This document shows positions 13,900-46,962 of a DNA stretch of 64,000 nucleotides, one piece after another. Made by a program: the position numbers and the translations under genes. The notes under the pieces are model-generated. The model searched no databases and was not told the origin of the DNA. It saw only the letters and a list, made by a program, of their open reading frames with translations. The stretch comes from Octopus vulgaris (Eukaryota): contig OX597814.1 in NCBI GenBank assembly GCA_951406725.2, forward strand, positions 174,530,001 to 174,594,000, read 5' to 3'. How positions within the stretch are numbered: the stretch's first letter is position 1; every line of letters begins with the position of its first letter.

Positions 13900-14075
13900 A
13901 TTGACCGCTAGCCACTAAAGCTTTTTATTCTCTCTCTCTCTTTATTTTCTCGTGTTCCTATCTGTTGAAGAGCGTAGGCTCGAAACGTAAAAAACTTCCT
14001 CATTTTCCCGAGCGTTAAACTAATACACCTATTTGTTGTTTACAAACCTGTCTTCGTGTTTTTTTTTTATAAATT
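13900..14075 (+). mobile_element. Penelope-like pLTR fragment with variant hammerhead motif
   Basis: CTGTTGA-A-GAGC-gtag-GCTC-GAAA-CG-TA at ~13962-13989. Confidence 0.5.
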
Positions 14076-14116
14076 CCACATACATACATCTATGTATACT
14101 TTATATATATATATAT

Positions 14117-14160
14117 GGTGCCCCAGCATGGCCACAGCTCATTAGCTGAAACTGGAAAAA
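14117..14160 (+). mobile_element. Extreme 3'-end stub of the CR1-group LINE family at 51507-54580
   Basis: ggtgccccagcatggccacagctcattagctgaaact matches 54514-54550 with one mismatch. Confidence 0.75.
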
Positions 14161-14168
14161 TCAAAATC

Positions 14169-14189
<21 letters not shown>

Positions 14190-14199
<10 letters not shown>

Positions 14200-15070
14200 T
14201 CTGTGTGTCACTGAAGCCATTCACACACATACATTATGTCTCACACATACGCACACACCAACACCATTGCTCTCTCTCTCTCTTCACATACACTAACAAA
14301 ACTTCACATGCACACCCCATTTTCTGTCTCACATAACCCATCAATTCTTCAGCTTGACGCCGACTTTTAAAATAACTTCCGATCCAATCGCTCTTTCGTT
14401 TTTGCGCCGAACACATATGTAAAAAATAAAAAACATTTCACAGAAAGCGAAGATCATGTTCAGAAAAACAAATAGCACGTGGTCTACATTGACAATTATG
14501 ATACTCAAATCGATTGTGTGCCGATTGTTTTTCACTTTCAGTAAATTCCCTGGTAAACGTTTCTAATAGAAAGGCAGAAGACACTAGAAGCAAAAATAAA
14601 TAATAGACACGCACAGTTAAATATAGAAGTGTACCGTATAATTTGTTACATAATCTCTATAATAAACATGATATTGAATGGATTAATTCCTCGTTTGAAC
14701 CTTTTTTAATTGTGTGTGTGTGTGTTAGAAATCTACGGATGCACAAAATGAAACAAATATGGACAACTTGTTCCAAAACACACTCTAGTGGAGACCGGTT
14801 CTCAAAAATAACCCCCAGTTGTTTTTCCCCCCAAATTCGTATGTTCTCGGAATCTACATAGTCCGAGGTAGAGAATTTCGTTAAAAAATATCTATTTTCT
14901 TGAAAATAAAGACGAATTGAAGTAGACGCCAGGGAATTTTCCGAAATTCCCCACCCCTCCTAAAACACTTTGCCCCACAAGTTTTGTATATTCGAAATCT
15001 ACATGATATAACACATATTCGTAGACAATTTCATTAAAAATAGCCATTTCTCTAAAAGTTATGATCGGTG
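14190..15070. mobile_element. Inverted partial copy of the 9925-11735 element
   Basis: Reverse-complement similarity over several blocks. Confidence 0.6.
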
Positions 15071-15096
15071 GAGCAGAGAAATCTGCCCTGAAATAG

Positions 15097-15280
15097 ATAT
15101 TGTTGTATTTCGGAAAGTGTCGCTGAAGAGGTCACAGATGTGACAAAAGATTTACGGACAATGGACATGAGTTAGAATAAGATCAGTAATAAACGAGTGA
15201 AGAACAAATATATAGTGCGTGTGTTTATTTAGCAAACAACCAAAAAAAAAAAAATGACCGTCCCGATATACAACAATATT
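15097..15280 (+). mobile_element. Fold-back Penelope-like insertion with hammerhead-like motif (same family as 46700-46962)
   Basis: Inverted ends atattgttgtatttcgg / ccgatatacaacaatat. CTGAAGA-G-GTCAC-agat-GTGAC-AAAA at 15123-15148. Confidence 0.55.
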
Positions 15281-15681
15281 ATTGTTTTATTCTCATTTCA
15301 TGATTGCATTTTCTTATCTGGATTTATCTTAAACACATGGCCTCACAGTATGTGAGTGATTTTGGGGAATGCAAATGCTTAGGATGAACTTTATAGGAGT
15401 GTAATGTGTTTATATTTGTGTGTTATGTGCATTGTTTGTGTGTGTGTCTGTTTGTGTACTTTTTACATATACAAACAGGGCATATTAATATACCCCGTTT
15501 GTATGGAAACAAGCACCAGCATAGCTAGAGCAGGGCAGAAGGAGTAGTCCATCCCGAGCGGCACTTTTATCGGGGTAACATAACTTTTGGGTCTGCCGTA
15601 GGCAACATATTTTTAGTGGGGGCTCAGGGGTGGCAAGCTGAAGGGCCGCACACACTGGCTATGCTAGTGTAAACAGGGTAT

Positions 15682-15906
15682 AGGCGGCGAGCTGGCAGAA
15701 ACGTTAGCACACCGGGCGAAATGCGTAGCCGTATTTCGTCTGCCGTTACGTTCTGAGTTCAAATTTCGCCGAGGTCAACTTTGCCTTTCATCCTTTCGGG
15801 GTCGATTAAATAAGTACCAGTTACGCACTAGGGTCGATGTTATCAACTTAATCCGTTTGTCTGTCCTTGTTTGTCCCTTCTGTGTTTAACCCCTTGTGGG
15901 TAGTAA
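15682..15906 (+). mobile_element. tRNA-derived SINE family B
   Basis: A box tggcagaaacgttag and B box gagttcaaattt. The core gcctttcatcctttcggggtcgattaaataagtaccag resembles, from memory, the MetaSINE-type central domain. Many copies in the window. Confidence 0.85.
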
Positions 15907-16259
15907 AAATATATATATAAAAAAAAATATATATATTAATATACCTTCTTTGCATGAGCTCTCTTAATTCCTCACGAAGTTGTAGGCCACTGTGACATAC
16001 GATTTATCTTGTGGATTTTGAAACTGACCGCAAAAAGAGAGGAAGATTGCTTCCAGCTCTGAATCAGTTATTTATCAAAACTAAAAAAAAATTAAACTTT
16101 AAGCTGACAATAGCGGCACTTGAACTCCAGCGCAGAAACCTAGAATGAATATGCTCTAACACCTGTGCCAAGTCATCGCCTTGCACATAGTTACCCATTA
16201 AATGCACATGTCACAAATATACGAAGTAGCAAATAAACATACACATCTCTTTTCCCTCA

Positions 16260-16402
16260 TATCATCATCATCGTTTAGCGTCCGCTTTCCATGCTGGCAT
16301 GGGTTGGACGGTTCAGCTGGGGTCTGGGAACCCAGAAGGCTGCACCAGGCCCATTCTGATCTGGCAATGTTTCTACGGCTGAATGCCCTTCCTAACGCCA
16401 AC
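16260..16402 (-). mobile_element. SINE family C, truncated
   Basis: Matches 1546-1690 and 38155-38300. Confidence 0.75.
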
Positions 16403-18580
16403 TATATATATGCAGTTAAGTATATGTCTGGTCATAGTGCTCAATGCTTTCACATCCATAAAGGGCTTAGCCCCATGGACAACTCATCAGATTCTACAGC
16501 CGAAAATTCCGCATACTAGATGTCAGTAGGTTTCAAGAATCACGGGAGAGAATGCTCAATACTTGGGCTCAGCAAGTACTTTTGCTCGTCCCAACAATAT
16601 ACTTAGTTTGAATGCACCTTTAGTGCTGCTGCAATTATATTGACTGAACGACATCTCTGCACGTGCATGGATTTGTTCTTCGGTATTCTAGTTTAGTTTT
16701 TCTGTATGTAAGCCAAAGCAGGCATTAAATCAAACATAAGTCTTGTGTTTCAGGGTTTTCTTTACTCCACACACCCCGCTCTCTCTCTCATTTTCTTTTG
16801 ATGACAATATTTTTGGTCCACCCAACAGCATATTTGGCATTAAATCAAATAGAAGTTTTATAATCCATTGAAATAAGATTTCTTTTCATTTGATTGCAAT
16901 TAAGAAAGTAATTTGGTTTTGTAAATTGTTTCAATAATTGCCACTGTAAGAGTATAATGGTGAAAAATTACTAAATGACAATTCAAAACAGCAGGGAGGA
17001 ATTGAGGAAACCTGGTAAGGAACGTGACCTGAGACTTGGAAAACCACATCTGACTAGCTGGAAATAATAACCAAATTTCCTCAATTCACACTCTACACTC
17101 TTAAAAAGGAAAGACTCCTTATCCAGTGTAGTGTTAGGTATACAAAAATATCATAGCCATGACTGAAAGGGTTTTGATCTGAGGTTTTCTAAATCAAGGT
17201 TGATTTGGGATTCAACACACTTTAATATAAAATCAAAGGTGAAGAAAGTGGGTGGTTAGGGGGGCAGTGGCCCTTGATGAAGGTTGCAAAACATTTTCTC
17301 CGACCTATCATGCCTGTTAATTAGGGTGAAGGCGCCAATAGCATTTTTTGTCCAGGCAGAACCCTTACTACATTACTGTATGAAATGCAGTGATGCGAGT
17401 ATGAGGTGTCAACTGTTTCCTGGATTGTTGTGAATTTGTATTCAATTATTGGCATAATATTACAGTTTAGAACATCAACAGCACCAGGGTTGGACCAAGG
17501 TAAGAGAGTTCATTGCTCCTCCATAACTTTGTTCAACAATTGAACATTGTCATCTTTGTGTTTTTTCACCCTTTAAGCTCCCACTACATCCACCAGTCAG
17601 CCCTGACTGAACAAACCTTTGATCTAACTATTCCAGTCATGTTCACCATGTCCTGCTGTAGGGCATTGTCAATCTTGGACTACAAATCAAGTCTGTATCT
17701 GTTTTCAAGATGGTAGGGTAATTTGAGAGAAATTTGGCTGATATTCTCAGTGATCTTGCTGGCTTATTGATATTGTTGTTTATACTATGTTTAACCTTTA
17801 TTGAACAGACACTTATGAAAGACATTCTAGCCTTGGCCTTATCTTTTTTGCCCTTGTGTCCTTTTTTGCCCTCTAGCTCAGCGGTTCTTAACTAGGATCA
17901 ATGTAAGATTTTTGGGGGTCCATGCAAGCAAAATAATAATTTGTGGGCCCACAGTAGTATATTAAGGGTCTAGAGAAAAATTTCATCCTTTCGGAGTCAA
18001 TAAATTAAGTACCAGTTACGCACTAGGGTTGATGTAATCAACTTAAACCCTTTGTCTGTCCCCTCTATGTTTAGCCTCTTGTGGGCAATAAAGAAATAAG
18101 AATAAGAATAGTAATCAAAGGGCTCCGTAGATAAAAATTGATTGAGAACCACTGCTCTAGCTTGTCCTTTTTTTAAAACAGGGTTGTGGAAGTTTGAAGA
18201 TTTATTTGAATGTTTATTCCTTGCAGGCTCAGTGACCACATCAAGCCTCTTTTTTTTTTTTTTTTCGTTGAACATTGATGTGTTTGTGGTGGTTAGGCAA
18301 TATTATATACACACAAGATATATATATAATGGCATTGTCTGAACTCACATGACCATAGATATAATATATTTGTAAACCGTTGGTTAAAGATAAGCTATGA
18401 TATTCATTCTTTCTTCATCTAGGGTTCATTAGTGTAACTGTGCCTAGAAACTGGAACCTGGTTCATCTGTTTACTTGCTAAAAATTGTATTCCATAGGCA
18501 AAGATCAGGAGCATATGTGAAGTTGAGTGTTTCCTCTTAGAAATCGAAACTGGGTTATAGATATGATGATTTCATTGTAT

Positions 18581-18802
18581 TACTCTTTTTACTCTTTTAC
18601 TTGTTTCAGTCATTTGACTGTGGCCATGCTGGAGCACCTTCTTTAATCGAGCAACTCGACCCCGGGACTTATTCTTTTGTAAGCCCAGTACTTATTCTAT
18701 CGGTCTCTTTTGCCGAACCGCTAAGTAACGGGGACATAAACAAACCAGCATCGGTTGTCAAGCAATGCTAGGGGGACAAACACAGATACACAAACACACA
18801 CA

Positions 18803-18848
<46 letters not shown>

Positions 18849-19014
18849 TACGACGGGCTTCTTTCAGTTTCCGTCTACCAAATCCACTCACAAGGCTTTG
18901 GTCGGCCCGAGGCTATAGTAGAAGACACTTGCCCAAGGTGCCACGCAGTGGGACTGAACCCGGAACCATGTGGTTGGTAAACAAGCTACTTACCACACAG
19001 CCACTCCTGCGCCT
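18581..19014 (-). mobile_element. SINE family A, full length
   Basis: Reverse complement of the 8138 and 33240 copies, with a (GAGTAAAA)n tail. Confidence 0.9.
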
Positions 19015-19105
19015 ATTGATGATTTGAACATTGGGAATAATAATAATAATAATAATTGTGTACAGTGCTCAGGTGCACTACAACTCATCTAAAGTGTATA
19101 TATAA

Positions 19106-21035
19106 TCAGGTGTAGTTTCGACGGATTTCGGAAAGCATGAGGGCCTTAAAGGATGCAGTGTCATGGCAGTCAACAACTGATGCAGGCAGTTTATTCCACG
19201 CTTCAGCAACCCTGAGCGTGAAAAAATGTTTCCGAAAGTCATGGGAGCTGTATTGTTTTCTGACTTTGTAGGCATGTCCACGTGTGTTAGACACATGGAG
19301 ATCAAAAAGGTGTTCAGTGTTGTTGTTGGTGAGGTGGTTGATAACTTTGTGGGTGTTTACCAAGTCCGTCGCCAAACGCCGGAGCTTCAGTGAATCCATG
19401 CCCAGGGAAACAAGGCGCTCAGAATATGGTAGGTGTCTGATGGAGGGTATGCGTTTGGTTGCACGTCTCTGGACAGATTCCAGGAGGTCAATGTTCTGTG
19501 CAAGATAGGGGTTCCAAACTGATGATGCGAATTCCAAGTGTGGTCGTACCATAGCTGTATACAGTTTTAAATAGATGGCTGGAGAGCGGCTAACAAAAGA
19601 CCTGCTGAGTGATGCCAAGACACCCTCGGCCTTCCTGACAATCTTAGAGATATGCTTTGACCAACGCAAATCACTGCTGACAGTGATGCCTAGGTCACGC
19701 TCGCAAGAGGATTTCTTGATATCAGTGTTGTGGAGGGAGTATGTGAACGCAGGGTTTTTTCTCCCAAAATGCATGGTGGTACACTTGTCCACAGCCAGTT
19801 TCAGTTGCCAGTCTGTGATCCATTGCTGCATTGTGTCTAGGTCTGATTGCAGGAAAGAGTTGTAGACATCAGGATCTGTCCTCTTGATTTCAAGGTACAG
19901 CTTGATGTCGTCTGCATATTTCAATACTGTGGCATTCTTTAAATTGGCATCTATGTCGTTAATGTATGCCACAAACAAGAGGGGACCAAGGACAGATCCC
20001 TGTGGTACACCCGATGACATCTCATATGGTGTAGAGTGCTGTCCTAGAACTGTAACTACCTCCTTTCGGCTGAGGATGAAGGATTTCAACCAGTTAAAAA
20101 GGTCATCCCCCACACCCATTGCAGAGAGTTTCACCATAAGCCTTTTGTGTGGCACAGAGTTGAAAGCCTTAGCAAAGTCAAGGTAGACAACATCCACCCA
20201 TGAGCCACTGTCAGTAATCTGAGTAATGTCCTCAAGGAACTCGACAAGCTGGTCACTGCAGCTGGAGTTAGGGACAAATCCATATTGTGAGGGTCGGATG
20301 AGACTGTGAGAGCTCCAGAAGTTCCAGAGTGTTTCTCTGACACACGATTCCATCAGTTTTGCAATACAGCTAGTGAGACTGACTGGGCGATAGTTGACAG
20401 GTGATGTGCGGTCGCCCTTTTTGAACAGAGGAATGACACTGGCAGTTTTCCACTGCTCCGGAGTAGCACCATTGTTGAGACAGTACTGGAAGAAAATAGA
20501 AAGCTGGTGTAAAAGGAAGTGCCTGCCACGTTTGAGAAGCAGGTATGTAACTCCATCGAGACCAGGGGAGGCATAGTTGCGCTTATTTTGAAGGTGACGT
20601 CGCAGCATTGCAGGTGTAAATTCCATAGTTGTTATGGAGTTTGCTGTTAGTGATGGTGAAGATGGTACATTTTGACTTTCAACAGTGAATATGTTTGCAT
20701 AGCACTCGGCAATGAGTTCTGCGCATTCCTTGGGGTCGTCAGTGATCTGGTTTGTGTGAGGGTTGCGAAGAGGGCCCACTGGAGAGTGAGGTCTCTGCTT
20801 TGAGTGCACATATTTCCAGAAAACCTTGCTGTCAGGATTGGCTGCTATGCACTGTTCAAATTCAAGCACTGCTTTTTTTGTCACTTGCTTGAGATGGTTG
20901 GAGGATTTATTCCGCTTCTTCCTGTTGGTGTCTGATTTATGCAACCTGTATTCTCGTTCAGCAGTCCGACGTTCCCTCCTGGCAAGTCGGACCGCTGAAG
21001 TTTCCCAAATTGCCCTTTTGGGGCGGTTCTTCTTT
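19106..21035 (-). CDS. LINE ORF2, reverse transcriptase part (frameshifted from the endonuclease part)
   Basis: SPGLDG, PLFKKG..NYRPVSLTS, QYGF, YLDFAKAFNSVPH, SGVPQGSVLGPLLF, YADD. CR1-type C-terminus VRPHLEFASSVWNPY..LESVQRRATK..TRGH..FFTLRVAEAWNKLP. Confidence 0.95.
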
Positions 21036-21930
21036 TTTGTTTACGTGGCACTGATGCTGCACATGCTGCCCATATTGAGTCCAGGATACTCTGGAGTATA
21101 GTATTCACATCTCCAGAGTTGTAGAATTCACGCCAGTTTGGGTGCTGTAGTTCAGTGTGGTACAGGTTCCAATCTGCTCTCTTCCAATCGAAGGAAGCAG
21201 ATTGGAGATGGTTCAGGTTTTTGTTGCCCGCAAGAGCCAGATTGGCGATGATCATAGCATGATCAGAGTCACCTAGAGGTTCCTCCGTTGTGCAATTGAT
21301 AACTGCTTCAGGAGTTGTGGTGAAGAGCAGGTCCAAGGTGTTGTCGCCTCTTGTTGGAGAGGTGACTACTTGTGACCAGTTTGAGTCCAGCACAAGCTCA
21401 ACAAAATCGTTTGCACTCTGTGGCCAATGGAAGGTCTCCCAATCGATCTCAGGATGATTGAAATCGCCTGCAATAAACACATAAGTGGCTGTTTTCCTGG
21501 CAGCAGCTCGGAGGACATTGCAAAGCTGTGTGTCCCGATGGTAACTTGGGGGACGATAAACAACGCCAAGCAGGAGTGTTGACATGGTCATACGCACGTC
21601 ACAGAAAAAAACTTCTTCTTGTGATTCGTTCAAATCGGCACAAGGAATTACCAAAAAATTTGAACGAACGTAGACCATCACACCACCACCACGGCGGTTA
21701 GTGCGGTCCTTACGGAAGAGGTTGTACCCCGTAATGTTGAAAACCCCATCACAGAGTAAGGAATGCGCCCATGTTTCCGTGACAGTGATGAAGTCAGGGT
21801 CAACACTTCTGACGTAGGCGTTGAACAAATGTATTTTGTTGCATAAACTGCGAGCATTTAAGGACAACAATTTGTACCCTGCTCGCAGTTTATGATGGTG
21901 TGTAGAGGATGGCAGGTTGTTCTGGCTTAG
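20881..21930 (-). CDS. LINE ORF2, APE endonuclease part
   Basis: LNARSL, ITVTETW, RKDR..GGGV, VYRPP, AGDFN, PTR..LDL, SDH. The frame is open upstream to the ORF1 stop with no ATG. Confidence 0.93.
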   Translation of the reverse strand, partial: LSQNNLPSSTHHHKLRAGYKLLSLNARSLCNKIHLFNAYVRSVDPDFITVTETWAHSLLCDGVFNITGYNLFRKDRTNRRGGGVMVYVRSNFLVIPCADLNESQEEVFFCDVRMTMSTLLLGVVYRPPSYHRDTQLCNVLRAAARKTATYVFIAGDFNHPEIDWETFHWPQSANDFVELVLDSNWSQVVTSPTRGDNTLDLLFTTTPEAVINCTTEEPLGDSDHAMIIANLALAGNKNLNHLQSASFDWKRADWNLYHTELQHPNWREFYNSGDVNTILQSILDSIWAACAASVPRKQKRRTAPKGQFGKLQRSDLPGGNVGLLNENTGCINQTPTGRSGINPPTISSK

Positions 21931-22717
21931 TTTCCCTGAGTTGCTGTAGTCTTTTTAGTTATTGTGGGTAGAGAGCACTCAGACCAGCTGGTATCTCTCT
22001 TCCACGTTTCAGCAGTCTTGACAAATCTCCAGATTTGTCCATCTTCCCGAAGACTGAAGCTTTCCTGTAGAGCTGAGTTCCTATTCAGGGAAGCCACTAC
22101 ACGTAGCTTCGGGCGTACATCGGACGGTAAGCCTGGGCGTGTTCGGAAGGTGGTCCGATTTTCCCGCCCAGCTTTAACTGAGGCCAGATGGTAAGAGGTT
22201 GCCTCAGTGGGGTCCGTAAAAGACAACTTGATGAGCCTAGGTTTTGGGCCAGGTTGTCCAAGGCGGATAGCACCCGTTGGGGGAACGCAGCCTAGGTCTT
22301 TGGCTGAGTTGGCAGCAAAAGCCTGAAGATCAGCCATGTCTTCTGGCACCCCAATGGCGATGACTTCATGGGTGGCAGAATCCGCAGTCTTAAATGCGAC
22401 AAGAGGCACAGGTACAGGGAGGTTCTTTAGCAGAGCATTCCGATAAGACCCCTCATTGTGGAGTCCAACCTGAATGGTTGCTTTTATTCCTGCTACTTCC
22501 CCTTTTAAAGCACAGATCGATTGTTGCAGTTCTGCAAGAACCGCACTGGTCAATTGGTGTTGTTGTTGTTGCTGCTGTTGCTCTGGTTGTGGTTGATTTT
22601 GTTGTTGCTGTTGTTGTTGTTGATGTTGTTGTTGCTGCTGCTCTGGTTGTGGTTGATTTTGTTGTTGCTGCTGCTCTGGTTGTGGTTGATTTTGTTGTTG
22701 CTGCTGCTGCTGCTCTA

Positions 22718-22750
<33 letters not shown>

Positions 22751-23144
22751 CTGGTTGTGGTTGATTTTGTTGTTGCTGCTGTTGCTGTTCCGCCTCCTCC
22801 ACGGGAGTGGCAGGGGGAGACACAATCGTCGGTTGTGGAGGCACGCAGGCCTGACACTGAAAAGTCCAAGATTTAAGCTGAACCATCTTCCAGAGTCTAT
22901 CCATCATAGCATTATGATGGCTCTTTTTTTGGCCTGGGATCTTCTGAAAGTCCGTGGCACATTGGAGGCAGACAGAGATGAGACATGTCCCACATTCGAC
23001 CCAGCGATTACGGAACGTATTTTCGGGTTCCGTACAGATGTGGCAGGTGTGATTTTCTGGGCAGTGTTCTATTTTAGAGCAGCGACCAGTCTTATCGCAC
23101 GCCGCTATGGATTTCACCATGGCGATTCTGTTGGTTCTGGTCAT
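21927..23144 (-). CDS. LINE ORF1 protein (PHD-like zinc finger, polyQ repeat, coiled coil, RRM-like domain)
   Basis: 405 aa. CHIC..VECGTCLISVCLQC..FQCQAC, repeated Q-rich QnNQPQPE units, heptads LAELQQSICALKGEVAGIKATI, VIAIGVPED..IRLGQPGPKPRLIKLSF. Directly upstream of ORF2. Confidence 0.88.
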
Positions 23145-23743
23145 CCGTAGAGACAGAAAATGTAAACAACAATACGATAAAAGTAAAATATAAAATATTT
23201 GTTTTTGATTCGTTCTTTTTTGTGTATATTCCTTGTTCTTAAATATTGTGTGTGTATATACACATGTTTCGTTCTTTTTTGTGTATATTCCTTTTTTTCT
23301 TAAATATTGCGTGTGTATACATAAAAGTATTTGTGCGTATAGACACGGAGAAAGTTTGTAAACAGAGATGAAATTTTTGATTTTTTTGCAGTGTAGTCCG
23401 TCACATTAAATAGTGTGATTTATTTTCACTCTGCACGTATATACATGTGTGCTACAAGTATCTATGTATGTATGTATGTCACTGCTTTATAAATTTTGGA
23501 CGTACTTACTGTCGTTCAACGATTTCTTTTACCCTCAACTACACGTGGTGAATTCTTCCATTGTAGATCTGTGGTGGTCATCGTCGTAATATTTTCTCTT
23601 TAGTTTCCTCGCCAAATTGATTATACCCTAATCAAACCATTTGTTTGTCTTGTTTTAGTAACATTGTATTTTCCTCCTTTTCCTTTTTCATTCCCATATT
23701 ATATGGAACTTCGGTGGACAGCTACTCTAAGACTCCAGCTGCC

Positions 23744-24666
23744 ATGTATGTATGTATGTATGTATGTATGTATGTATGTATGTATGTATGTATGTATGTA
23801 TGTATGTATGTATGTATGTATGTATGTATGTATGTATGTATGTATGTATGTATGTATGTATGTATGTATGTATGTATGTATGTATGTATGTATGTATGTA
23901 TGTATGTATGTATGTATGTATGTATGTATGTATGTATGTATGTATGTATGTATGTATGTATGTATGTATGTATGTATGTATGTATGTATGTATGTATGTA
24001 TGTATGTATGTATGTATGTATGTATGTATGTATGTATGTATGTATGTATGTATGTATGTATGTATGTATGTATGTATGTATGTATGTATGTATGTATGTA
24101 TGTATGTATGTATGTATGTATGTATGTATGTATGTATGTATGTATGTATGTATGTATGTATGTATGTATGTATGTATGTATGTATGTATGTATGTATGTA
24201 TGTATGTATGTATGTATGTATGTATGTATGTATGTATGTATGTATGTATGTATGTATGTATGTATGTATGTATGTATGTATGTATGTATGTATGTATGTA
24301 TGTATGTATGTATGTATGTATGTATGTATGTATGTATGTATGTATGTATGTATGTATGTATGTATGTATGTATGTATGTATGTATGTATGTATGTATGTA
24401 TGTATGTATGTATGTATGTATGTATGTATGTATGTATGTATGTATGTATGTATGTATGTATGTATGTATGTATGTATGTATGTATGTATGTATGTATGTA
24501 TGTATGTATGTATGTATGTATGTATGTATGTATGTATGTATGTATGTATGTATGTATGTATGTATGTATGTATGTATGTATGTATGTATGTATGTATGTA
24601 TGTATGTATGTATGTATGTATGTATGTATGTATGTATGTATGTATGTATGTATGTATGTATGTATG
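23744..24666. repeat. Perfect (TATG)n microsatellite, about 230 units
   Basis: Uninterrupted repeat. It explains the CMYV/HTYI ORFs. Confidence 0.99.
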
Positions 24667-25559
24667 AAATTTTTGTTGCTTTGATATCATTGTCTCCATC
24701 ATTATAATTTAGACAAACAAGTTTTCTTATATTATTTTAAATTAAAAAAAACCCTTTGATTCAATAATAAAATAAATAAAACAGTTGTTAGTTTACTGCT
24801 TTTGTTTTAATAAGAAAAAATATGTCAATTCAGATTACACTTTTATAAAATCTACTTTTGACTAGAAATATTGTTTAATCAATAAATGGAATGCAGTTGT
24901 TTCTTATCTTTGGGCTTGCATCTACTTAAACAGGCCACGACTAAGATATCCAGATGGCGACTACGATAAGGTTTTCCTGTTTAATTAAATTCTTTACCTC
25001 TTTTACTAACTGATTTAATTCATATTTCATGTTTAACACTTTTAAGACAGATATTTTGTGTTTTTTCAAAAAAATTTGTATAACTAATATATTTATATAA
25101 AATAATGAAAGTCTAACAATTTTTTGTTCAGCCTTGTTGAATTTTTATGAAAGGTTTCATTTTAAATAATGCATCTGAATATAATTGAGGTGCCTTAACT
25201 TGAATGATAAGATTTAATATTGTATTGTAAATAGTGTTTCCCATGGTAAAACAAGTAGAACAAGGAAAAAAGTTTTATATTGTATTGCCAAAAGCAATTT
25301 GTTACTTTGAAACAAAATCTTTTTTAAAATCTAGTTTTACCTGTTTTTATTTTGCAAAATTTGAAAATAAATTTTTCATGGAAGTTTCTTGCTGAAAACA
25401 TGTGTAGTGATCTCAGGCAAATGACAGTTTAATTTCATTGTTTTGTCACATGTTACTTCAGGGAATGAAGCTAGTCAATACATAACTGTTTTGTACCGAT
25501 GTCACATGTGTTATTTTAACTAATCAGAAATTAATAGTCGATGAGCTATATTTTGGTTA

Positions 25560-26255: not shown

Positions 26256-26547
26256 GGCAATCTTACGGTTCTAGTATATTTTACGTCAACTGACCACGTG
26301 TATTTGTTTATATATGATCCTCGATTTCCGTAAAAAACTTTTAGTTTTTTACATTTATTTTTTTACATATGGGGTTGGGGGGAAATGGGATCTTTAGGGT
26401 TTGGGGTTAGGGTTAGGACCCTAAGATCCCATTTCCCCCCAACCCCATATGTAAAAAAATAAAAGTTTTTGACGGAAATCGACGATCATATATAAACAAA
26501 TACACGTGGTCAGTTGACGTAAAATATACTAGAACCGTAAGATTGCC
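26256..26547. mobile_element. Palindromic MITE with TTAGGG repeats in its loop, inserted in the RTE fragment
   Basis: ggcaatcttacggttctagtatattttacgtcaactgaccacgtg is mirrored at the right end. ttagggtttggggttagggttagg at ~26394-26417. Confidence 0.85.
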
Positions 26548-31597: not shown

Positions 31598-31820
31598 TGT
31601 GAGGTATACTTGCCATCTCAATATGGCTAACCACTAAGGGTGGGTGTTACTGTAGCTTGTAGCCCCAGGAGAGCATTGTCTCCAGCTGGCTATAGGCACC
31701 CTTTCTGTGCCCTAAAGTGTGCCTATAGCCAGCTGGAGACGTTGCTCTCCCGGGGCTACAAGCTACAGTAACACCCACCCTTAGTGGTTAGCCATATTGA
31801 TATGGCAAGTTTACCTCACA
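31598..31820. mobile_element. Near-perfect palindromic insertion with 12-bp TSD (Penelope-like)
   Basis: About 100-bp arms. TAACTTTTTTCT at 31587-31598 and 31822-31833. Confidence 0.75.
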
Positions 31821-37067: not shown

Positions 37068-37605
37068 AGGTTTAGTCCTAGATAAACTTTGATTGGATGG
37101 TCAAGGGTGGAACATCTTCCATCATTGATTTGTGCAATTAAAGACGACAAAAGGCCAAGCAATAACAATGCCTTATTACAGTAATGATAAAAGGATAACA
37201 AAGCCTCTCAATATGGTCGCTAGAAATAGCAGCCAAATCCCCAAGTTAAGGAATGATAAACATACACAAGAGACATATAAAGACGAAATACGGCTACGCA
37301 TTTCGCCCGGTGTGCTGTAAATACCATCGCCAAAAAAGTAAAAGATATTTAACTATAAAGATTAGCAGTTTCCTCTGCTATTGTAAATATCAAATGATGG
37401 ACCATGACAGTTGGTAAGACATTGTACTAGAATAAAAAGAAATGAGCATCAAACAGCTATTGTTATTGCCAAATTTAGTTACGTTTGTAAAAAACGTAAA
37501 TAAATTATTTAGCACAAAGTTTAAAGTGTAGCTTCTATTCTGGCCCTTATGATGCTATCACTACTGTTTTTCACCTGCTGATATAACTATAACTGTTACT
37601 TTAAA

Positions 37606-37907
37606 TTATGGAGATGTACTTACATAGCAAGTGACCTGATCTGAGATTGTGTGCTGGAATGAAAACAATTGCAGCGTGGAAGGTGCTTATAAGCCATTTA
37701 AGAAACACACAAAATCCGTTAGATTCATTTCAACATTTAAATTTAATTTGTCAAAATATTTTCGTCGCTTTGAGACCGCAACCTGTTCACTGCCTAAATT
37801 CCATGCATCTGCATGGAATTTTGTTAGTGAACAGGTCATGGTTGAAGTGAATCTAACGGATTTTGTGTGTTTCTTAAATGGCTTATAAACACCTTCCATG
37901 CTGCAAT
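37606..37907 (-). mobile_element. Fold-back Penelope-like insertion with G3:C8 hammerhead variant, 12-bp TSD
   Basis: TGTTACTTTAAA at 37594-37605 and 37908-37919. Inverted arms. Minus strand reads GTGAACA-G-GTTGC-ggtctcaaa-GCGAC-GAAA-ATAT-TT-TGACAAA. Confidence 0.7.
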
Positions 37908-38154
37908 TGTTACTTTAAAACACCCAGATTAATTAATATTAATTGTTAACATTATTTCCTTAGGAGTAGTATTATTGAAATAATGAATTTTGGTGCACTG
38001 ACTGTTTTTACTGTAAAAATTTTGCAGTTTCTTGATATGGCTGAATTTTATCTTACTGATTTCTATCGAATTTGGTAATTTGGAAACTTGTAATATTCTT
38101 TTTGTATGTTAGACACATATTTTTGAAAAGTTAAGCATAATTTTGGACACACAT

Positions 38155-38390: not shown

Positions 38391-38398
38391 TTTCTAAA

Positions 38399-38741
38399 CT
38401 AGCAGTATTGCCCGGCGTTGCTCGGGTTTGTTTTCTTTTCGACCCTTTAGAATTGGAATTTTTGAAAAGTAAAAATTTTGCATTATGTAGCTTGTTATTC
38501 TCTTTAAGTGAACATTTTTCTGGTTGAAATACACCGAAAAATGGCGATTTGATGTAAATAATTTTTTATCTTAACATGGTCCGATTTGAACTTTTTCTTC
38601 TATGGAATAAAGAGCAAGCTTTCTTCTATCATACTCTCAATTTTGGTCAACTTGTGCCGCAGGGTCTCAGAGGAGATAGTGTTAGTTGAAGGCTACCAAA
38701 CCTACCATACACAGACAACTACAGCTTTATATATAAAGAGA
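38399..38741 (-). mobile_element. Non-autonomous Helitron
   Basis: Minus strand: A|TC..TATATATAAAG start, 3' hairpin CCCGAGCAACGCCGGG, CTAG|T end. Same family as 54630. Confidence 0.85.
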
Positions 38742-39682
38742 TTTATGAATTTAACTCCCTGCTTCCTATTTCTGACATAAAACAAATATATGGATAAACC
38801 AATAGCATTGCATTCAGAGCCAATATAACTGAAAGTTTTGTTAGGCAGAAGTTAAGATTATAGCAGTATTTATTTTCCTGAAATCTAATGTGAGAGGTAA
38901 ATAATTATTTTGGTTTATAACGAATCTAAATAAATAAGACTATGACTAATTACACATAGCCAGGAGATGAAATGAGAAAGTTATATTATTTCAGTTCAGG
39001 AATTTCAGGTTTCTAAATAGAAGTTATGTCTCAACAACAAAAGTGCAAGTAGTCAGCACCTAACTTAATTTATCTTCTTGCATATTATTGTTTGTTTTTT
39101 TTTTTTTGTTTTCCTCTTGAATTGTTTTAATATCACAGTATTGTTTAATTTAATGTCATTGAGATATTGCTTTAATGGAATTTACATTAGTGCATTCTTA
39201 ACGTCATCATTTAGTAACTTGAAAACCTAGAGGAGTAGTGTTTGCATTGATGTTACTACCTCTGCTTCCATAAGATGGTGTTTTGATTGTCCTTATTTCC
39301 TCAAAAGGTTAAAGATTTATATCTTGTAATTGGTACTTCATTGTGTAGCTGGCAAATGAATTTAAGAGTCAACCAATATTAAGTGCAGAAAAATAGTAAT
39401 TGTTGTGCTCTGACTGAATCTACCTTGCTTGCTCCCATCATAACCCTCACCAGAAGTGAGAGCATCTATTTGATTGCTTAATCTGCTAGAAATAGCAGTG
39501 AAATTCCCCTTAAATCACATTCCATTGATAAAGAGACACATTAGGTAATGTGATCAAAATGGTCAAAAATGGAATGCCACTGATCACAAGTCTGCTTGGT
39601 CAGGTTGGTATGGAATAAACAACAACAAATAACAGCAGCAGGCATTCAATTTATTCTGTCAAGCTTATTCGGAAATAGACTG

Positions 39683-39977
39683 TTTGTTCCTTCTCGAGCC
39701 ATGCCTGGCTCATTAGGGCCGGTTTCCTTGGCGAATAAGTTCCCCACCTGGACGGGACACAGGTCCGTCGCAGGTGAGCTGCAAGATGCAGGAGGAAAGA
39801 GTGAAAGAAAGTTGTGGTGAAAGAGTCAGCAGTAGTTTGCCATTACCTTCTGCCGGAGCTTCATGGAGCTTAGGTGTTTCACTCATAAACACACACATCG
39901 CCTGGTCTGAGATTCGAACCCGCGATCCCTCAACCGCGAGTCCACTGCTCTAACAACTAGGCCATGTGTCTCTGCAA
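39683..39977 (-). mobile_element. tRNA-derived SINE with V-domain-like core and 13-bp TSD
   Basis: TSD CGGAAATAGACTG (39670-39682, 39978-39990). A box tggcctagttgttag, B box ggttcgaatct, core cctgcgacggacctgtgtcccgtccagg. Confidence 0.8.
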
Positions 39978-40203
39978 CGGAAATAGACTGGACAGAGGGG
40001 GGAATGTCCCATTGCATTTTGGCACTCCATCCAATTCATCACTGCATGAGGGAGTATGCAGTATATCCTCAAACCAGACAGAGGCATTGTATTTCCAGCA
40101 TAATAGGTTTGTGGTTGTACCTCATCATTTGTCCAACTAGTTATGTATATAAGTCTGCATAGCTAGAGCTGACCTAACCTACTTAAAACGTTTAACCATA
40201 TTC

Positions 40204-40637
40204 TCTTTTCTTACTCTTTTACTTGTTTCAGTCATTTGACTGCACCATGCTGGAGCACCACATTTAGTCGAGCAAATCGACCCCGGGACTTATTCTTTGG
40301 AAGTCTAGTACTTATTCTATCGGTTTCTTTTGCTGAACTGCTAAGTTACGGGGATATAAACACACCACCATTGGTTGTCAAGTGATGTTGCAGGGGGACA
40401 AACACATACACACATACACATATATATATATATATATATACATATATACAACAGGCTTCTTTCAGTTTCCGTCTACCAAATTCACTCCCAAGGCTTTGGT
40501 CGGCCTGAGGCTATAATAGAAGGCACTTGCCCAAGGTGCCACACAATGGGAATGAACCCGGAACCATGTGGTTGGTAAGCAAGCTACTTACCACACAGCC
40601 ACTCCTGTGCCTGTCCACACAGCCACTCTTGCGCCTA
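40204..40637 (-). mobile_element. SINE family A with a tandemly duplicated 5' end
   Basis: Full copy. ccacacagccactc(c/t)tg(t/c)gcct occurs twice at the head. Confidence 0.9.
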
Positions 40638-40769
40638 TATATATAGGTAAGTTTTTGCTATTAGTTTGACTGTTCAAATCTTCTCATTGGCCCTATGTTT
40701 ATATTATTAGAGTCCACAAATTTCCAATCAGTTCTGTTACTGTTTACATTTATTCCCATTTATATAAGC

Positions 40770-41090
40770 ATATGGCTTTGTAATTAGGGTATTTGGCTTA
40801 CAATCGTAAGGTCGGGAGTTCAGTTCTCACCAATGTTTTGTGTCCTTGAGCAAGACTCTGTATATCACATTGCTCCAGTCCACCCAGCTGGCAAAACTGA
40901 GTTGTATCTGTATTTCAAAGAGCCAGCATTGTCACATTCTGTGTCATACTGAATATCCCTGAGAACCACATTAAAAGTATGCATCTCTGTGGATTGCTCA
41001 GCTATTTGCACATTAATCTCACAAACAGACAATCCCTTTGATCAGATCAACTGGGATCTTCATCGTCATAACTGATGGGGTGCCAGTAAT
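40770..41090 (+). mobile_element. Older tRNA-derived SINE
   Basis: tRNA-like head (ggtcgggagttcagttct) followed by gtgtccttgagcaagac..cattgctccagtccacccagctg. Confidence 0.55.
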
Positions 41091-42859
41091 AATAATTTAT
41101 ATCTTTGACACAAGGCCACATATTTGGGAAGGACATGATTGACTGAGTCAGTCATATTTAACCGGCAAATAGTTCATCAACCTTCAAAGGATGAAAGGCA
41201 AAGTTGATCTAAGTGAGATTTGAACTTGGCACAAAAAAGGACAGTTTTAAGCAGTACCGAAAGATATTTGATCTGGCATTCTACTGTTTCTGCAGATCCA
41301 GTTTTAATTTCTTTAATAAGGATATTAATTACAAAAATTTGACTTGGGACAACACACTACATATCCTAGGGAGAATGAGAGAATGAGACGTACATGTTTT
41401 TTATTTCTCAAAAGTGTTAGTGAAGATAAAAAAGTGAATTAACTTCAACAAACTGGTATATATCTTGGCAGGAAGTTATCTCTTGCTTTGAGATACAACA
41501 ACAATAATAAAAAACAATGATTTCTTTTCAATACAAAATTCATGTTACTAAATTAGCTGTACTTACATCAGTAATTATTTTGGTCAGATATAGGTCACTA
41601 GTGAAACTGGATTAAGAAATTATTCATGAAGATAAGAGATTTTAATGATTTGCAGATTGTCAGGCACTCAAATCTTGTGTAGGCCATTCCTTACTGGGAA
41701 GTGGAAGGGTGAGTTCTACGTGGTTAGATATGAGGGAAATCTGCCCTGATAGGAGGAAAAGAGGAAGGCTACAAAACCTTGCACTGCTTTAGAGGAAGCC
41801 GCCAGTAGCATTAAGAGGTTCTAGTGTGTGTGTTAGCAGTCACTCGAAAGTAAATATTATCTGGTAGCTTGTGCCAAGCTTTCAATCCTTGTTTTAGGAT
41901 CTATGTAGCCACAGCAAACAAACATCCTCTTGACCCTCCCAGACATGATCCTGTAGAACATCAAGGATGTAATACTCGGAGAAGAGAGAGAGAGAGAGCT
42001 ACATCACCACTCAGCTAGTATTATTTTTCAACTGAGGAGACTGGAGTAATATGGAACAAAGTGCTTTGCTCAAAGACAAAACATACTGCCCAGTTCAGGA
42101 ATTGAACCAATGATTTTATAATCATGAGTCCAACACCCTAACTTTGAAGTTATGTGATAGACTAGTAGTTTAGGTGTTGAGTTTCCATCTGTAACTTATT
42201 CTCTATAGATTCGGCTATAAGTTATCAGCATATAGATGAAGTAATATACATGACTAGCTGGCCCTATACCATCAAAAATGACAGCTAATTGCATATTATA
42301 TATAAATATGGATGGTAGATCAAATTTATACACTTGTCAGCGTTATCTAATGTTGTCTTTCAAGATGTGACATTGATCATTGTTTGTTACTTAAAGGATG
42401 CTGGTTCACACATACAAACATTCACATACTTCCCTTGTACACACACTTACATATACTCACACAGAGTTGAAACGCTGTTTGATTTTTCTTTTCAGCATTG
42501 AATGTTCACCATCCCACTTCCATAGCACACACACACACCTCCCTTTTACATATATGCACATATACTCACACAGAGTTGAAACACTCCCACTACCAGTTTG
42601 CCATCACCTCTTCCTTCCTTATTCATCTATCACCCCTTCCTTTCTCATTCATATGTTGTGACGGAGAAAAACAAGAGTATTATTATAGTAGATAGTCACT
42701 CGAATAATTGATAGGGTTATACAGAAAGCTGTTATACTGGCATAGCAGTGTCAATGTCAATTGCTACAAAGACAGAGGGGATGCACTTGAGAGAGGCAAT
42801 TATTGAGTCAGATTGTTAGTTCAGGTCATGAAGCTTATGGAAAGAATCATAACATAATT

Positions 42860-43230
42860 GTTTAGGAACAGAAGTAACCTATATGATATGCAATTTGGTT
42901 TTTTTGCCAGGAACAATTGCCACCAATGTCACTTTCTTAGTAAGACAACTGCAAGAGAAATAAGTATTTAGCTAAGTCGAAAACTTTAGCATTCATCATC
43001 TTGGATAAAGTCTTTGACAGAATGTCACACTCTATAATCTGGTGATCACTAGGGAACCTGGATGTTTATGAACCACTTGTGAAGGCTAATACAAGCCATG
43101 TACAGAGGCTCAGTCAGCAATGAGTTCAGTGATGAATTTTGTGTGCAGGTAGAGTTGGTTCCTCAATGGTTAATCCTCAGCTCTTTTCCTGTTCATTATA
43201 GTTCTGCATGTTATCACAGAGGAATTAAGG
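42860..43230 (+). pseudogene. Degenerate RTE-clade RT fragment
   Basis: MQFGF.., LVRQLQEK, AF..LDKVFDR, IQAMY remnants. Confidence 0.6.
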
Positions 43231-43603
43231 AGGCTTTTCATGAGTCCTCTCGTTATATATATATATATATTATATATATTTGAAGGTCAATAAAATAAGG
43301 TCATGATGGAAGATAACAAAAAAAGGAATGCAGAAACTGTTAAGAGAGATAAATACTGACTAAAAGTATTTCTAGGTCTGTAAAGTAGAAAATCTATTTA
43401 TGTAAATGAAAATTTATTCATAAGCTTTTTAGCAAATGTTAGCTAATTAAATTTAGGTTTTCTTATTAACCACCTAGTGCATATTATATTTATTTCTTGG
43501 CACTTCAATTACAACACTCTTATATGAAGAAAACAAAATTGAAAGTTTGGATAAGTTATAAGGATTCTTGACTTTTGAATATTATTGTTACATGCAATAT
43601 ATG

Positions 43604-43675
43604 GCAATTGTTGTCTAGTGGTTAGGATTCCTGGCTCTCACCCAGGTGGCCCAGGTTCGATTCCCGGCGTGGGAA
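43604..43675 (+). pseudogene. tRNA-Glu(CTC) pseudogene lacking the 5' acceptor strand
   Basis: GTCTAGTGGTTAGGATT-CCTGG-CT-CTC-AC-CCAGG-TGGC-CCAGG-TTCGATT-CCCGG-CGTGGGA-A. The 5' strand is GCAATTG instead of TCCCACG. T5 run downstream. Confidence 0.8.
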
Positions 43676-43696
43676 CTGGTTAACTTTTTCTTTAAA

Positions 43697-43945
43697 AGGC
43701 GGCGAGCTGACAGAAATGTTAGCATGCCGGGCGAAATGCTTAGCGGTATTTCGTCTGCCATTACGTTCTGAGTTCAAATTCCGCCGAGGTCAACTTTGCC
43801 TTTCATCCTTTCGGGGTCGATTAAATAAGTACCAGTTATGCAGTGGGGTCGATATAATCGACTTAATCCGTTTGTCTGTCCTTGTTTGTCCTCTCTGTGT
43901 TTAGCCCCTTTGTGTGTAGTAAAGAAATAGGTATTTCGTCTGTCT
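43697..43945 (+). mobile_element. SINE family B, full length
   Basis: Matches the 15682 copy. Followed by a family C 3' stub with (GAT)n to ~44010. Confidence 0.88.
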
Positions 43946-45589
43946 TTATGTTTTTGCCGTCCAACCCATGCTAGCATAGAAAACAGACGTTAAACGATGA
44001 TGATGATGATATGTTTCAGAATTTTTTATATTTGAATAATTTAATAGATAGTGCAAAGAATTTTAATTTTCTTACATCTGACATAATCATTATCCTTAAA
44101 TGAGCTGAAAAAGAGCAATAAAAGATTTATTTTTCTGCATACTGATTGTTTTGGTGCTAGAGGGTTAATGACATATTAAGAACAGAAATAACAAACCTAA
44201 TTTGATTTACTGTGTGGAATGCGTGATGATTTAGCATCATGATTGTAATAGTTAGATGTGGTCAAAATATATGATGATGGTCATTAAACTGAAAACTAAA
44301 TTTAGACAGGAAGAATTCATCTAGAAAATTGTAGGCAGTAGAAATATAAAATTGGTGTGTCTAAGTTTGTGTGGGATTGCTCAAGTGTTTAAGTGTGTTT
44401 GAGAGTGCATGTGTGTGTTTTCAATAGTATTTCTTCTCATTAGTTTTCATTTTAATTTCTTCATTGTCAACCTCTGAGGCATACAATACAAACTCTCTAC
44501 AAGCACCCTTCAAACTTTTCTTTTAATTTTTAGCTGAATACATTTCCCATTGCTTATGCTACTTGTGAAAGTAGCTTAAGAAAGATACAGGTATCTTATG
44601 ATACTTTCTTCCTTTTTTTTATATCAGCTTTTAAAATCATTAAATTTCTGTTGATATAATAAAAATATGGGAAATTTTGTTGCTATTTCTAGCAGTTTGT
44701 GTAACCATAGAGAGGTTCCAGGATATGAAAAATAATGAACTACAAATATCCTCTTTAACACAGTATTGTTGATTGAAGGAAATTTCTGTAGAGATAATTT
44801 TGATAAATGCACATATCAGCTGAGGCAAAGAGGATAGCCTCTACATAGTCATTCAACATGCTAGTAGTTGCTGAATCTCTCTCTACTTAGACCTTACCGT
44901 CTTAAAATTAAAGTACTAGTGAAATACTGGAGATGCAAAATTAAATACCAGTAAAACACCCAAGTTGACACAACTGACTGTCCTTCCTAACAACAGTTTG
45001 TGGTCTCATTGCCTAGCTTAGAAATCAATACTTGGTTAAGTCCCTTCATATTTCATCTTATTTTGAGTTAATATCGCACTAGGTTTGACCTTCCTATTTT
45101 CAGAAATCATGACATATCAAAATAGTGTGTGTGTATGTGCAGACAAGTATACCTATCCACTTCCTCCTTCCTAAACATTATACTATCCACTCCCCTAACA
45201 ATTCATGGCCTTGTTTCATTGAAAAATTAGTATTTATTATATTTTCTTCAGTCGACTGAATGATGTTTATAGTATTTTTTTTTTTTGTACAGCATGAGAA
45301 ATATTTACAAAATTAGCACTTATCACAATAGCTTGGAGTAGTCTTCTACCTGGCCAGCTCCTGACAAACCATCCAGCCCATGCCAGCATGGAAGGCAGAC
45401 CTTAAACGATGATGATGATGATCATCATCATCATTGTTGGACACATTGTATCAAATAGTAACAGATAAATACACGCATCAGGGGTAAAAAAAAAATAATA
45501 AAATGACTGGTTGGTCACTAATGGACTGCCTGTGGTCATAGGTCATCTCAATCATAGCTAATCTTAGGTTAAACAACATAAATAAATGT

Positions 45590-45860
45590 ATTTCGTTTTG
45601 GGATTTGGTTTGCAAGATTCTTTATATATATGAGTTCGTGTGTTGAAGCATATTCTGTTGTGTCTGGGGAAAGTCATTTTCTTTTTGTGCCTTATAATGT
45701 AACACACTCACTTGACTATTAGTCTTGACTATTGAAAAAGGTTGCAAGATGCAACGAAAATTTTAGGAAAATAAAAATAAGAAATAAGTGGAAATTTTAC
45801 CGGTGAGTGTATTACATTATGAGGCACAAAAAGAAAATGACTCTCCCCAGATACAACAGA
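45590..45860 (+). mobile_element. Fold-back Penelope-like insertion with U3:A8 hammerhead variant, 12-bp TSD
   Basis: ATAAATAAATGT at 45578-45589 and 45861-45872. Inverted arms. CTA-TTGAAAA-AG-GTTGC-aagat-GCAAC-GAAA-AT-TT-TAG at 45729-45766. Confidence 0.65.
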
Positions 45861-46151
45861 ATAAATAAATGTGTTATTTGGAAAAGGCAACAGTAAGAGT
45901 GCAGGGAAATTGTTTTGGGGAATGGAGTATCCAAGGTTTCAGACTGAGTCCTTTCAGAGGGTAAAGATGACAGGAAGACAATAATAGAAAGAACTGAGTT
46001 TTATTACATCCTTTATGTTTAAGAAACTGGCAGCAAGCACATTCAACATTGTGGAATTAGAATCAAAACAAATCAAAGCATACCAATATTTGGTATATTT
46101 CATAGTTATCTTATATATCTATTTTATTCATATAAATCATATTATTATATG

Positions 46152-46189
<38 letters not shown>

Positions 46190-46192
<3 letters not shown>

Positions 46193-46348
46193 TTAAAAAT
46201 GGGGAAGGCTGGTTTATGGGATTACCTTAGGTTTCCCGTCCATAAATGATTTAGCTTTATGGCGTATCATCAGATCCCAAAGCTAAACCCTTTATGGATG
46301 GGAAATCTAAGGTAATCCTATAAACCAGCCTTCCCCACTTTAAATATA
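46190..46348. mobile_element. Palindromic Penelope-like insertion in a TA tract
   Basis: tggggaaggctggtttatgggattaccttaggtttcccgtccataaa is mirrored at ~46291-46337. Confidence 0.7.
46217..46279 (-). ncRNA. Type I hammerhead ribozyme (canonical core)
   Basis: Minus strand: TGGGAT-CTGATGA-tacgCCATAAAgctaaatcaTTTATGGacgg-GAAA-CCTAAGG-TA-ATCCCA. Perfect 6-bp stem I, GUA cleavage triplet, short quasi-palindromic stem III. The base of stem II is imperfect. Confidence 0.7.
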
Positions 46349-46430
46349 TACTGCTCTACATCTTAGAGTGTGCTTCTTTCAGATTTATGTTTTCTACAAA
46401 CAATCCTTTTTACTCCCTGTTTTCTACAAA

Positions 46431-46481
<51 letters not shown>

Positions 46482-46699
46482 GTGTGTGTGTTTATATATT
46501 GTTACGCTGCATGCAGCCTCCCGAAACCACCTACAACACAACAGTCTGTCTGATAGCAAAACCAGAGAGCAGTGTTCTAATTTGTGTCATATGAATAAGA
46601 AATTATTTGAATATAAATTTTTTGTTCATAACAATATATGTGTCAGTGTGTTTATATATACGTGTGTGTGTGTATGTGTATATAAATATATATTATATA

Positions 46700-46962
46700 A
46701 TTGTTATATTTCAGGATGGTCCTTTTATTTATATATTTTGCCAGATAAACATATGCACTATATACTTATTGGACTAATCTGGACAGGAAGGAGACATGTG
46801 GGATGGCCAGTCACTGAAAAGGTCACAGAATGTGTGACAAAAGATTTAAGACAAAGGACACTAAAATGAGAATAATAATAAAACTGAACCAGTATATAGT
46901 GCATGTGTTTATTTGACAAAATAAATAAATTAATTAAAGGACCATCCCGAAATATATCAATA
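46700..46962 (+). mobile_element. Fold-back Penelope-like insertion (family of 15097-15280)
   Basis: Inverted arms ggatggtcctt..aaacatatgcactatatac / gtatatagtgcatgtgttt..aaggaccatcc. CTGAAAA-G-GTCAC..GTGAC-AAAA at 46814-46842. Confidence 0.55.

Follow-up and report, generated by a model that had tools for sequence, protein, structure and literature searches.

A 64,000-nucleotide stretch of the Octopus vulgaris genome (assembly GCA_951406725.2, contig OX597814.1, positions 174,530,001 to 174,594,000 of the forward strand; the window, whose own numbering is used throughout) contains six short motifs that share a type I hammerhead ribozyme layout and differ in their catalytic cores, which raises the question of what elements carry them and whether the core changes reflect covariation, decay or chance. 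We consider it very probable that the six sites, designated A to F, are short insertions of the pseudo-long terminal repeats (pLTRs) and open reading frame (ORF) starts of several Penelope-like families, each with a minimal type I hammerhead. This supports the attribution to minimal hammerheads of the Penelope pLTR type made in a preliminary description of the stretch. Minimal pLTR hammerheads, the U3:A8 pair, the extra nucleotide after A9 and inverted pLTRs are already published; the new part is a family-wide natural G3:C8 core in family B.

All six cores listed in the preliminary description were borne out when checked on the sequence and in pair tables, although their quality is unequal. 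Hammerhead B (37747–37797, minus strand) has a GUGAACA core with G3 at 37790 and C8 at 37785, one extra G, a stem II of 5 bp, GAAA, an AAUAUU stem III and U17 at 37754, cleavage being predicted between 37754 and 37753; in the window copy stem I is interrupted (2 bp, then a mismatch), and both arms of the insertion contain the same core. Hammerhead C (45729–45766, plus strand, N3 at 45732), found in a single copy, combines a UUGAAAA core (U3:A8) with two extra nucleotides, a 6-bp stem II, a 3-bp stem I and an AAUU stem III, and would be cut between 45763 and 45764. Hammerhead E (plus strand, N3 at 15123) retains the canonical CUGAAGA core, a 6-bp stem II and a 3-bp stem I and has A at position 12, a substitution also seen in hammerhead F (plus strand, N3 at 46814), where positions 3 and 8 form a C-A mismatch and the first stem I pair is mismatched as well. 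Hammerhead A (46217–46279, minus strand, N3 at 46273) presents CUGAUGA in the 20-nt loop of a fold-back, together with GAAA, A17, a palindromic stem III whose 4 bp close a 1-nt loop and a stem I of 6 bp, a 4-nt bulge and 6 further bp; its long stem II (9 bp) begins with an A.G mismatch at 10.1-11.1, position 11.1 being G in both arms, and the predicted cut lies between 46223 and 46222. A degenerate A-like copy read from the sequence at 16420–16500 (minus strand, N3 at 16490) has CUGAUGA, a related long stem II and GAAA, with stem I unformed. Site D (13955–13995, plus strand, N3 at 13962), located between (TA)n runs, has CUGUUGA (U6), GAAA, an ACGU stem III and A17, with 4 bp in stem II and only 1 bp in stem I in this copy.

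Across the sites, the N3-UGA-N-N8-A core with a Watson-Crick 3:8 pair is present in A, B, C and E and fails in F (C3-A8) and in D (U6). The G10.1-C11.1 pair occurs in B, C, D, E and F, and the GAAA segment at G12-A15.1 and the U16.1-H17 cleavage dinucleotide are intact in A, B, C and D. In the window copies of E and F, G12 has become A, for which decay of a CpG is a plausible cause. The mismatched F is ruled out as a case of 3:8 covariation. The earlier proposal that five families keep diversified ribozymes is therefore not supported: the D copy is without stem I, E and F are without G12, F is mismatched at 3:8, and the family-wide state was examined in B alone.

What relates these cores to one another is a peptide encoded next to them. 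The pattern FQH-x-x-S-x-Q-V-x-C lies downstream of the ribozyme in B and F and recurs in an isolated tail piece of the B/F lineage at 9860–9915 (minus strand), which has no hammerhead; the peptide part D-x-P-x-I-x-Q is common to C, E and F. The predicted cut is separated from the peptide by 94 nt in B, ~102 nt in C and 118 nt in F, and stem II begins with G-U in B, C, E and F. When B, F and the 9.9-kb piece are compared, the variable columns number 3, 1 and 7 at the first, second and third codon positions (p = 0.039 for third positions), and the codon differences between B and F comprise 5 synonymous and 3 non-synonymous ones. The shared peptide and the third-position bias indicate that the pLTR and tail overlap a coding frame and point to an old one, which would correspond to the ORF N-terminus of the parent element. 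Because they share a similar cut-to-peptide spacing, a common stem II start and the same peptide, the hammerheads of B, C and E/F are homologous, and by this sequence comparison the three form one lineage. The preliminary description was thus right about a type I layout with varied cores in B, C and E/F and wrong in treating them as independent families. Given such homology, the 3:8 Watson-Crick covariation that it noted, namely C3:G8 in E, U3:A8 in C and G3:C8 in B, is true covariation.

The G3:C8 core is the state of the whole family in the material that we examined. Public contigs were mapped onto the family B stretch 37570–37960 at 80% likeness and with a 10% share cut-off; 20 of the 24 sequencing runs listed contain part of the stretch and four of the 24, from four organisms, were mapped (none of the 24 is recorded as RNA, and they have no bearing on expression). 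The four runs yielded 15,163, 12,560, 8,690 and 6,792 contigs, with a summed depth, which is not a copy number, of millions over the element and below 100 in its flanks. No alternative letter reaches at least 10% in the core (37784–37790), GAAA (37760–37763) or stem III in any of the four, and U4, G5, A6, A9, GAAA and the UH dinucleotide are without a common variant. At 37780, 37793 and 37795 the window copy departs from the family majority, and with the majority letters stems II and I are restored to 5 Watson-Crick bp and 7 bp, respectively; the preliminary description had named a consensus lacking stems I and II as grounds for refutation, and in B the majority letters form both. A variant at 37751 (~18–40% of depth) retains a G.U pair, and two further variants lie in loop II. 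Common variants that disrupt the structure were found at 0 of 37 structured positions and at 11 of 141 positions downstream, a hand count whose chance probability of ~0.05 is borderline.

Among the loose contig ends listed for B, a shared 3' end falls at 37605/6 with a second class near 37662, the other element end lies at 37907/11, and the shared 5' stretch fades into AT-rich noise ~20–27 nt upstream of G3. A TAA that interrupts the reading frame at 37687–37689, present in both arms of the window copy, accounts for 85, 62, 57 and 95% of the depth in the four runs and an open codon in its place for 5–43%, and the 14 minor variants are distributed 4, 6 and 4 over the codon positions. Since the in-frame stop is dominant and the variants are spread in this way, B has propagated largely without coding constraint. 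The suggestion that such insertions are mobile units in their own right thus gains some support from the thousands of contigs, the apparently fixed ends and the prevalent stop. That support is confined to B, a Penelope reverse transcriptase (RT)-endonuclease would be needed in trans, and the shape is that of the published inverted-pLTR-plus-tail pattern.

The insertions themselves have a common anatomy. Five of them, A, B, C, E and F, fold back with their 3' ends, by the polarity of the strand that encodes the ribozyme, on the outside; the arms meet at their 5' ends and are head-to-head, not tail-to-tail as first described. The family B insertion (37606–37907, minus strand) consists of a direct arm at ~37606–37811 with the hammerhead and a tail at 37606–37663, joined at a palindromic centre to an inverted arm (to 37907) that is internally deleted, and is flanked by an exact target-site duplication (TSD) of 12/12 bp (37594–37605 and 37908–37919). 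The family C insertion (45593–45860, plus strand) begins with an inverted arm that includes a 58-nt tail (45593–45712), continues with the direct arm and its hammerhead, and has a TSD matching at 14/15 positions (45578–45592 and 45861–45875). A second family C copy at 7232–7368 (minus strand) joins an inverted tail piece to a direct arm without a hammerhead core and has a TSD of 14/14. Family F (46701–47027, plus strand) combines an inverted arm (46701–46770), a direct arm with the decayed hammerhead and a ~66-nt tail between TSDs matching at 12/13 positions (46688–46700 and 47028–47040), and the family E copy (15088–15279, plus strand), 74% like F, has a short inverted arm with a tail start (~15088–15114) followed by a direct arm. 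The tail is one-sided, carried on one arm, in B (58 nt), C (58 nt) and F (~66 nt) and partial in E. The family A fold-back (46188–46349, minus strand) adjoins (TA)n and has no clear TSD; D, likewise at (TA)n runs, has neither fold-back nor TSD. Overall, the TSDs in the preliminary description could be confirmed for B, both C copies and F, at 12–15 bp, and none is clear at A, D or E. A 12-bp candidate at E was rejected, the repeat being E's own short inverted arm. Anchored repeats of 12 bp arise by chance in 1 of 1,500 random position pairs. Head-to-tail tandem copies with hammerheads were not found within the window.

Two further observations concern these copies. The tail pieces at 9860–9915 (minus strand) and 15088–15114 adjoin copies of one other repeat (9947–10042 and 14973–15066), which may reflect targeting or capture. 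Penelope elements keep introns, and a 48-nt stretch of family C at 45803–45850 (plus strand) has splice-donor-like and acceptor-like ends, the inverted arm beginning at the donor-like site.

We propose that a Penelope RT-endonuclease would nick both strands of AT-rich DNA 12–15 bp apart, that two cDNAs would be primed from two internal start sites ~60 nt apart in the same RNA region, and that they would meet at their 5' ends to yield the head-to-head insertion. Most templates would be uncut RNA, because the whole hammerhead is copied, and cleavage by the ribozyme would be slow, would need a dimer or help from protein and would be confined to parent or master transcripts; family B, with its reading frame mostly lost, would probably be copied in trans, and the other window copies would be decayed fossils. 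A head-to-head insertion contains one sense ribozyme and therefore no dimer in cis. In the predicted fold of the whole insertion, the core is buried in B (unpaired probability of 0.0 at all 7 positions), nearly so at C3, G8 and A9 in A (0.04) and open in C (0.74–0.95). The direct arm of the second C copy starts ~4 nt before the predicted cut, a hint of cutting from a single case that chance would produce roughly one time in ten. Self-priming on an antisense template is a published alternative for the origin of inverted copies (PMC3846280).

Much of this picture has counterparts in known systems. The minimal Penelope hammerheads of Cervera and de la Pena (PMC4209133) resemble those of the window in their type I layout, extra nucleotides after A9, palindromic stem III, G10.1-C11.1 pair (B to F) and U3-A8 families, as well as in the many heterogeneous families per genome, mostly solo motifs and opposite-strand neighbours; low dimer activity was reported in the same study. 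They differ in the extra nucleotide, which is H in the published consensus and G in B, E and F, and A departs from the shared pattern with a G at 11.1. Unlike family B, none of the Fig. S3 representatives examined has G3:C8, and the set appears to include no cephalopod, the word 'Octopus' being absent from one of its supplement files. Natural U3-A8 and a weak A6C were reported by Perreault (PMC3088659).

As to architecture, the published Penelope anatomy comprises inverted pLTRs, an optional tail, TSDs of 8–10 bp, a junction palindrome and a mostly head-to-head arrangement, and in Adineta the pLTR and tail encode the first 22 ORF residues (PMC3846280). The insertions described for endonuclease-containing Penelope-like elements (EN+ PLEs; Arkhipova 2013, PMC3846280; Craig 2021, PMC8557442) share with those of the window the head-to-head inverted copy, one-sided tail, palindromic junction, TSD, overlap of the pLTR and tail with the ORF start, solo pLTRs and, in some clades, (TA)n targets; the window insertions differ in having no ORF body between the arms, tails of 58–66 nt and TSDs of 12–15 bp. 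At AT-rich sites the Anolis Poseidon protein PAc makes nicks in both strands and extends each of them; reverse transcription begins at two internal positions that bound the tail, on a template of uncut RNA. The PAc ORF starts in stem II, and the hammerhead cuts only with the protein (Frangieh 2024, PMC11167929). The hammerhead at the ORF start, the two RT starts that define a tail, the AT-rich targets and the uncut template are features that the window sites would share with the Anolis system, whereas C3G/G8C, an engineered partial rescue in PAc, is the natural majority state in family B (PMC11167929). Non-LTR retrozymes are likewise short, non-coding and derived from PLE pLTRs, contain a hammerhead and occur as numerous scattered monomers. 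Their defining feature is the head-to-tail tandem repeat, whereas the copies in the window are solo or head-to-head with one sense hammerhead per transcript (bioRxiv 10.64898/2026.07.22.740005). In the portion of the literature searched, a natural G3:C8 hammerhead was not found, engineered mutants being the only cases, and the variants of Lunse et al. 2017 may include it. That survey, in RNA Biol, reportedly lists many PLE hammerhead variants.

Several results weigh against the assignment of the sites to pLTR and ORF-start insertions with hammerheads. An Rfam search of the window returned no hammerhead family among 75 matches at E ≤ 10. Minimal hammerhead variants are poorly captured by Rfam models. 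Descriptor scans barely exceed shuffled sequence: the strict version matched once (C, one of the six motifs), 40 shuffles averaging 0.35 matches, tolerance of one mismatch per stem gave three matches (B, C and 33727) against 1.05, with 4 of 40 shuffles reaching 3, and a descriptor allowing all variants of the preliminary description gave nine against 4.4, with 1 of 40 shuffles reaching 9. This last scan recovers B, C, E and F (four of its nine matches) and misses A and D, and the additional matches at 5927, 25069, 33727, 36481 and 41295 were rejected, as they lack the shared peptide and their count equals that of chance. The motifs alone are therefore weak evidence, and the support comes from their context and from the family data. 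An exact 22-nt family D pattern had no match in metagenome, viral and prokaryote contigs. A full three-way junction with an open core is the minimum-energy monomer for no motif, except roughly C, E and F, and the codon comparison above covers just 11 codons. The broad search by which the TSDs of B and F were located finds repeats of at least 12 bp in 8% and at least 13 bp in 5% of 150 random tries; the ends of B are independently confirmed by the loose ends of the family and those of F are without such confirmation, and both tails and TSDs exceed the published 30–40 nt and 8–10 bp. Family-wide support is limited to B, and contigs with a different core may have been clipped and hence undercounted in the mapping.

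The parent protein, too, escaped the searches. Word and profile searches with short queries linked no RT/GIY-YIG protein to the families: word searches for proteins with the peptide gave 2 and 137 candidates, none of which scored, and the two profile matches were a repeat artefact and a 48-aa copy of the family C peptide. Eight long ORFs of the window contain long interspersed element (LINE)-type domains or nothing, and in the part of the Craig 2021 supplement compared, two short motifs were unmatched and the FQH matches were unrelated.

Against this background three other readings can be weighed. Family B, and perhaps C and E/F, may be a self-contained unit of ~200 nt resembling a short interspersed element (SINE), equipped with a promoter of its own and with a G3:C8 hammerhead that is active and under selection, and its copies may beget copies via a Penelope protein in trans. 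This is a possibility that we entertain with some doubt, as the dominant TAA, the even spread of variants over codon positions, the shared 3' end and 5' stretch among the loose ends listed and the borderline scarcity of disruptive variants would all fit it, as would reports that pLTRs suffice for integration in trans (PMC3846280) and that retrozymes are non-autonomous PLE derivatives (bioRxiv 10.64898/2026.07.22.740005). Nevertheless, an ordinary Penelope transcript on which RT started internally, within the 5' part, would yield the same short product with fixed ends, the open codon persists in a share of the depth, and the stop could stem from a small number of dead master copies with no spread from copy to copy; such a unit would in any case be a special case of the pLTR and ORF-start reading, and compatible with it.

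We regard it as unlikely that the hammerheads are dead relics in which core changes are drift and the stems are kept as a protein-binding or promoter structure. Such decay would fit the loss of G12 from both E/F copies, of A6 from D and of the 10.1-11.1 pair from A and from the second A copy. It would also fit the 10^5-fold cost of G8C and its only partial restoration by C3G (PMC8495972), and the finding that Anolis hammerhead mutants leave insertion in vitro unaffected, with no RNA reads ending at the cut site of the anole element (PMC11167929). Drift is, however, difficult to reconcile with double changes that arose twice, giving U:A in one case and G:C in the other and retaining a Watson-Crick pair in both, or with the invariance of U4, G5, A6, A9, GAAA and UH in B across four organisms. 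The fold-backs could finally be DNA elements resembling miniature inverted-repeat transposable elements, with hammerheads as chance matches in AT-rich hairpin DNA; the 4.4 matches per shuffled window, the five of nine real matches that look like chance and the other window fold-backs without the motif agree with this, and chance may hold for D. We nonetheless judge the idea highly improbable: it is at odds with the one-sided tails, variable inner junctions and TSDs of 12–15 bp, with the same peptide at a similar distance in three families and with the majority letters that repair both stems of B, for which it is already largely refuted.

Under the pLTR and ORF-start reading, we tentatively suggest that B is a very abundant, non-autonomous SINE-like Penelope derivative, ~200 nt long and common to at least four related species, in which a natural G3:C8 core has become fixed, is still under selection and cleaves, either as a dimer or aided by the Penelope protein, and that it has C3:G8 and U3:A8 sisters. 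If true, a single lineage would hold the catalytic base pair in three natural states. Position 8 of the hammerhead supplies the general acid, and to our knowledge G3:C8 has been seen solely as a partial rescue in the laboratory. Its maintenance with perfect stems across species suggests selection for the fold and probably slow cutting, so that B bears on what Penelope hammerheads do and offers a natural series ready to assay. B also adds to the Penelope-derived repeats a large family that has probably gone unclassified and that searches fixed on CUGANGA would miss.

The window, with 37% GC and CpG at 0.47 of its expected frequency, is rich in SINE-like repeats of octopod appearance, in microsatellites and in LINE ORFs. 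Another fold-back family, without a hammerhead motif, occurs at 31598–31820 and 8615–8836, the 31.6-kb copy forming an almost perfect hairpin of 107 bp flanked by a 15-bp target duplication (14/15), and may represent the 3' ends of another Penelope-like family. A fold-back at 26256–26547 contains telomere-like TTAGGG-type repeats in its loop and has related pieces at 14400–14484, 10191–10256 and 11358–11417, and one of 1 kb at 57701–58760 is 85% self-complementary with a 7-bp direct repeat nearby. At 59535–60332, inverted ends of 160 bp flank a decayed interior that presumably resembles the start of a mariner-type transposase, and further inverted-repeat elements at 13337–13858, 2728–3279 and 10096–10954 show no clear TSD or hammerhead motif. 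At 43609–43669 (plus strand) a tRNA-like sequence scores 35.6 bits, above the gathering threshold of Rfam; it lies immediately ahead of a repeat shared with 15682–15895 and is probably a SINE head. A LINE at 19106–23405 (minus strand) encodes an ORF1-like frame, an apurinic/apyrimidinic endonuclease and an RT in long open frames (Pfam Exo_endo_phos and RVT_1), with a 0.9-kb (ATGT)n array upstream at 23744–24668; a second LINE with endonuclease, RT and frame changes lies at 51505–54484 (plus strand), and a separate RT fragment at 50326–50700 (plus strand).

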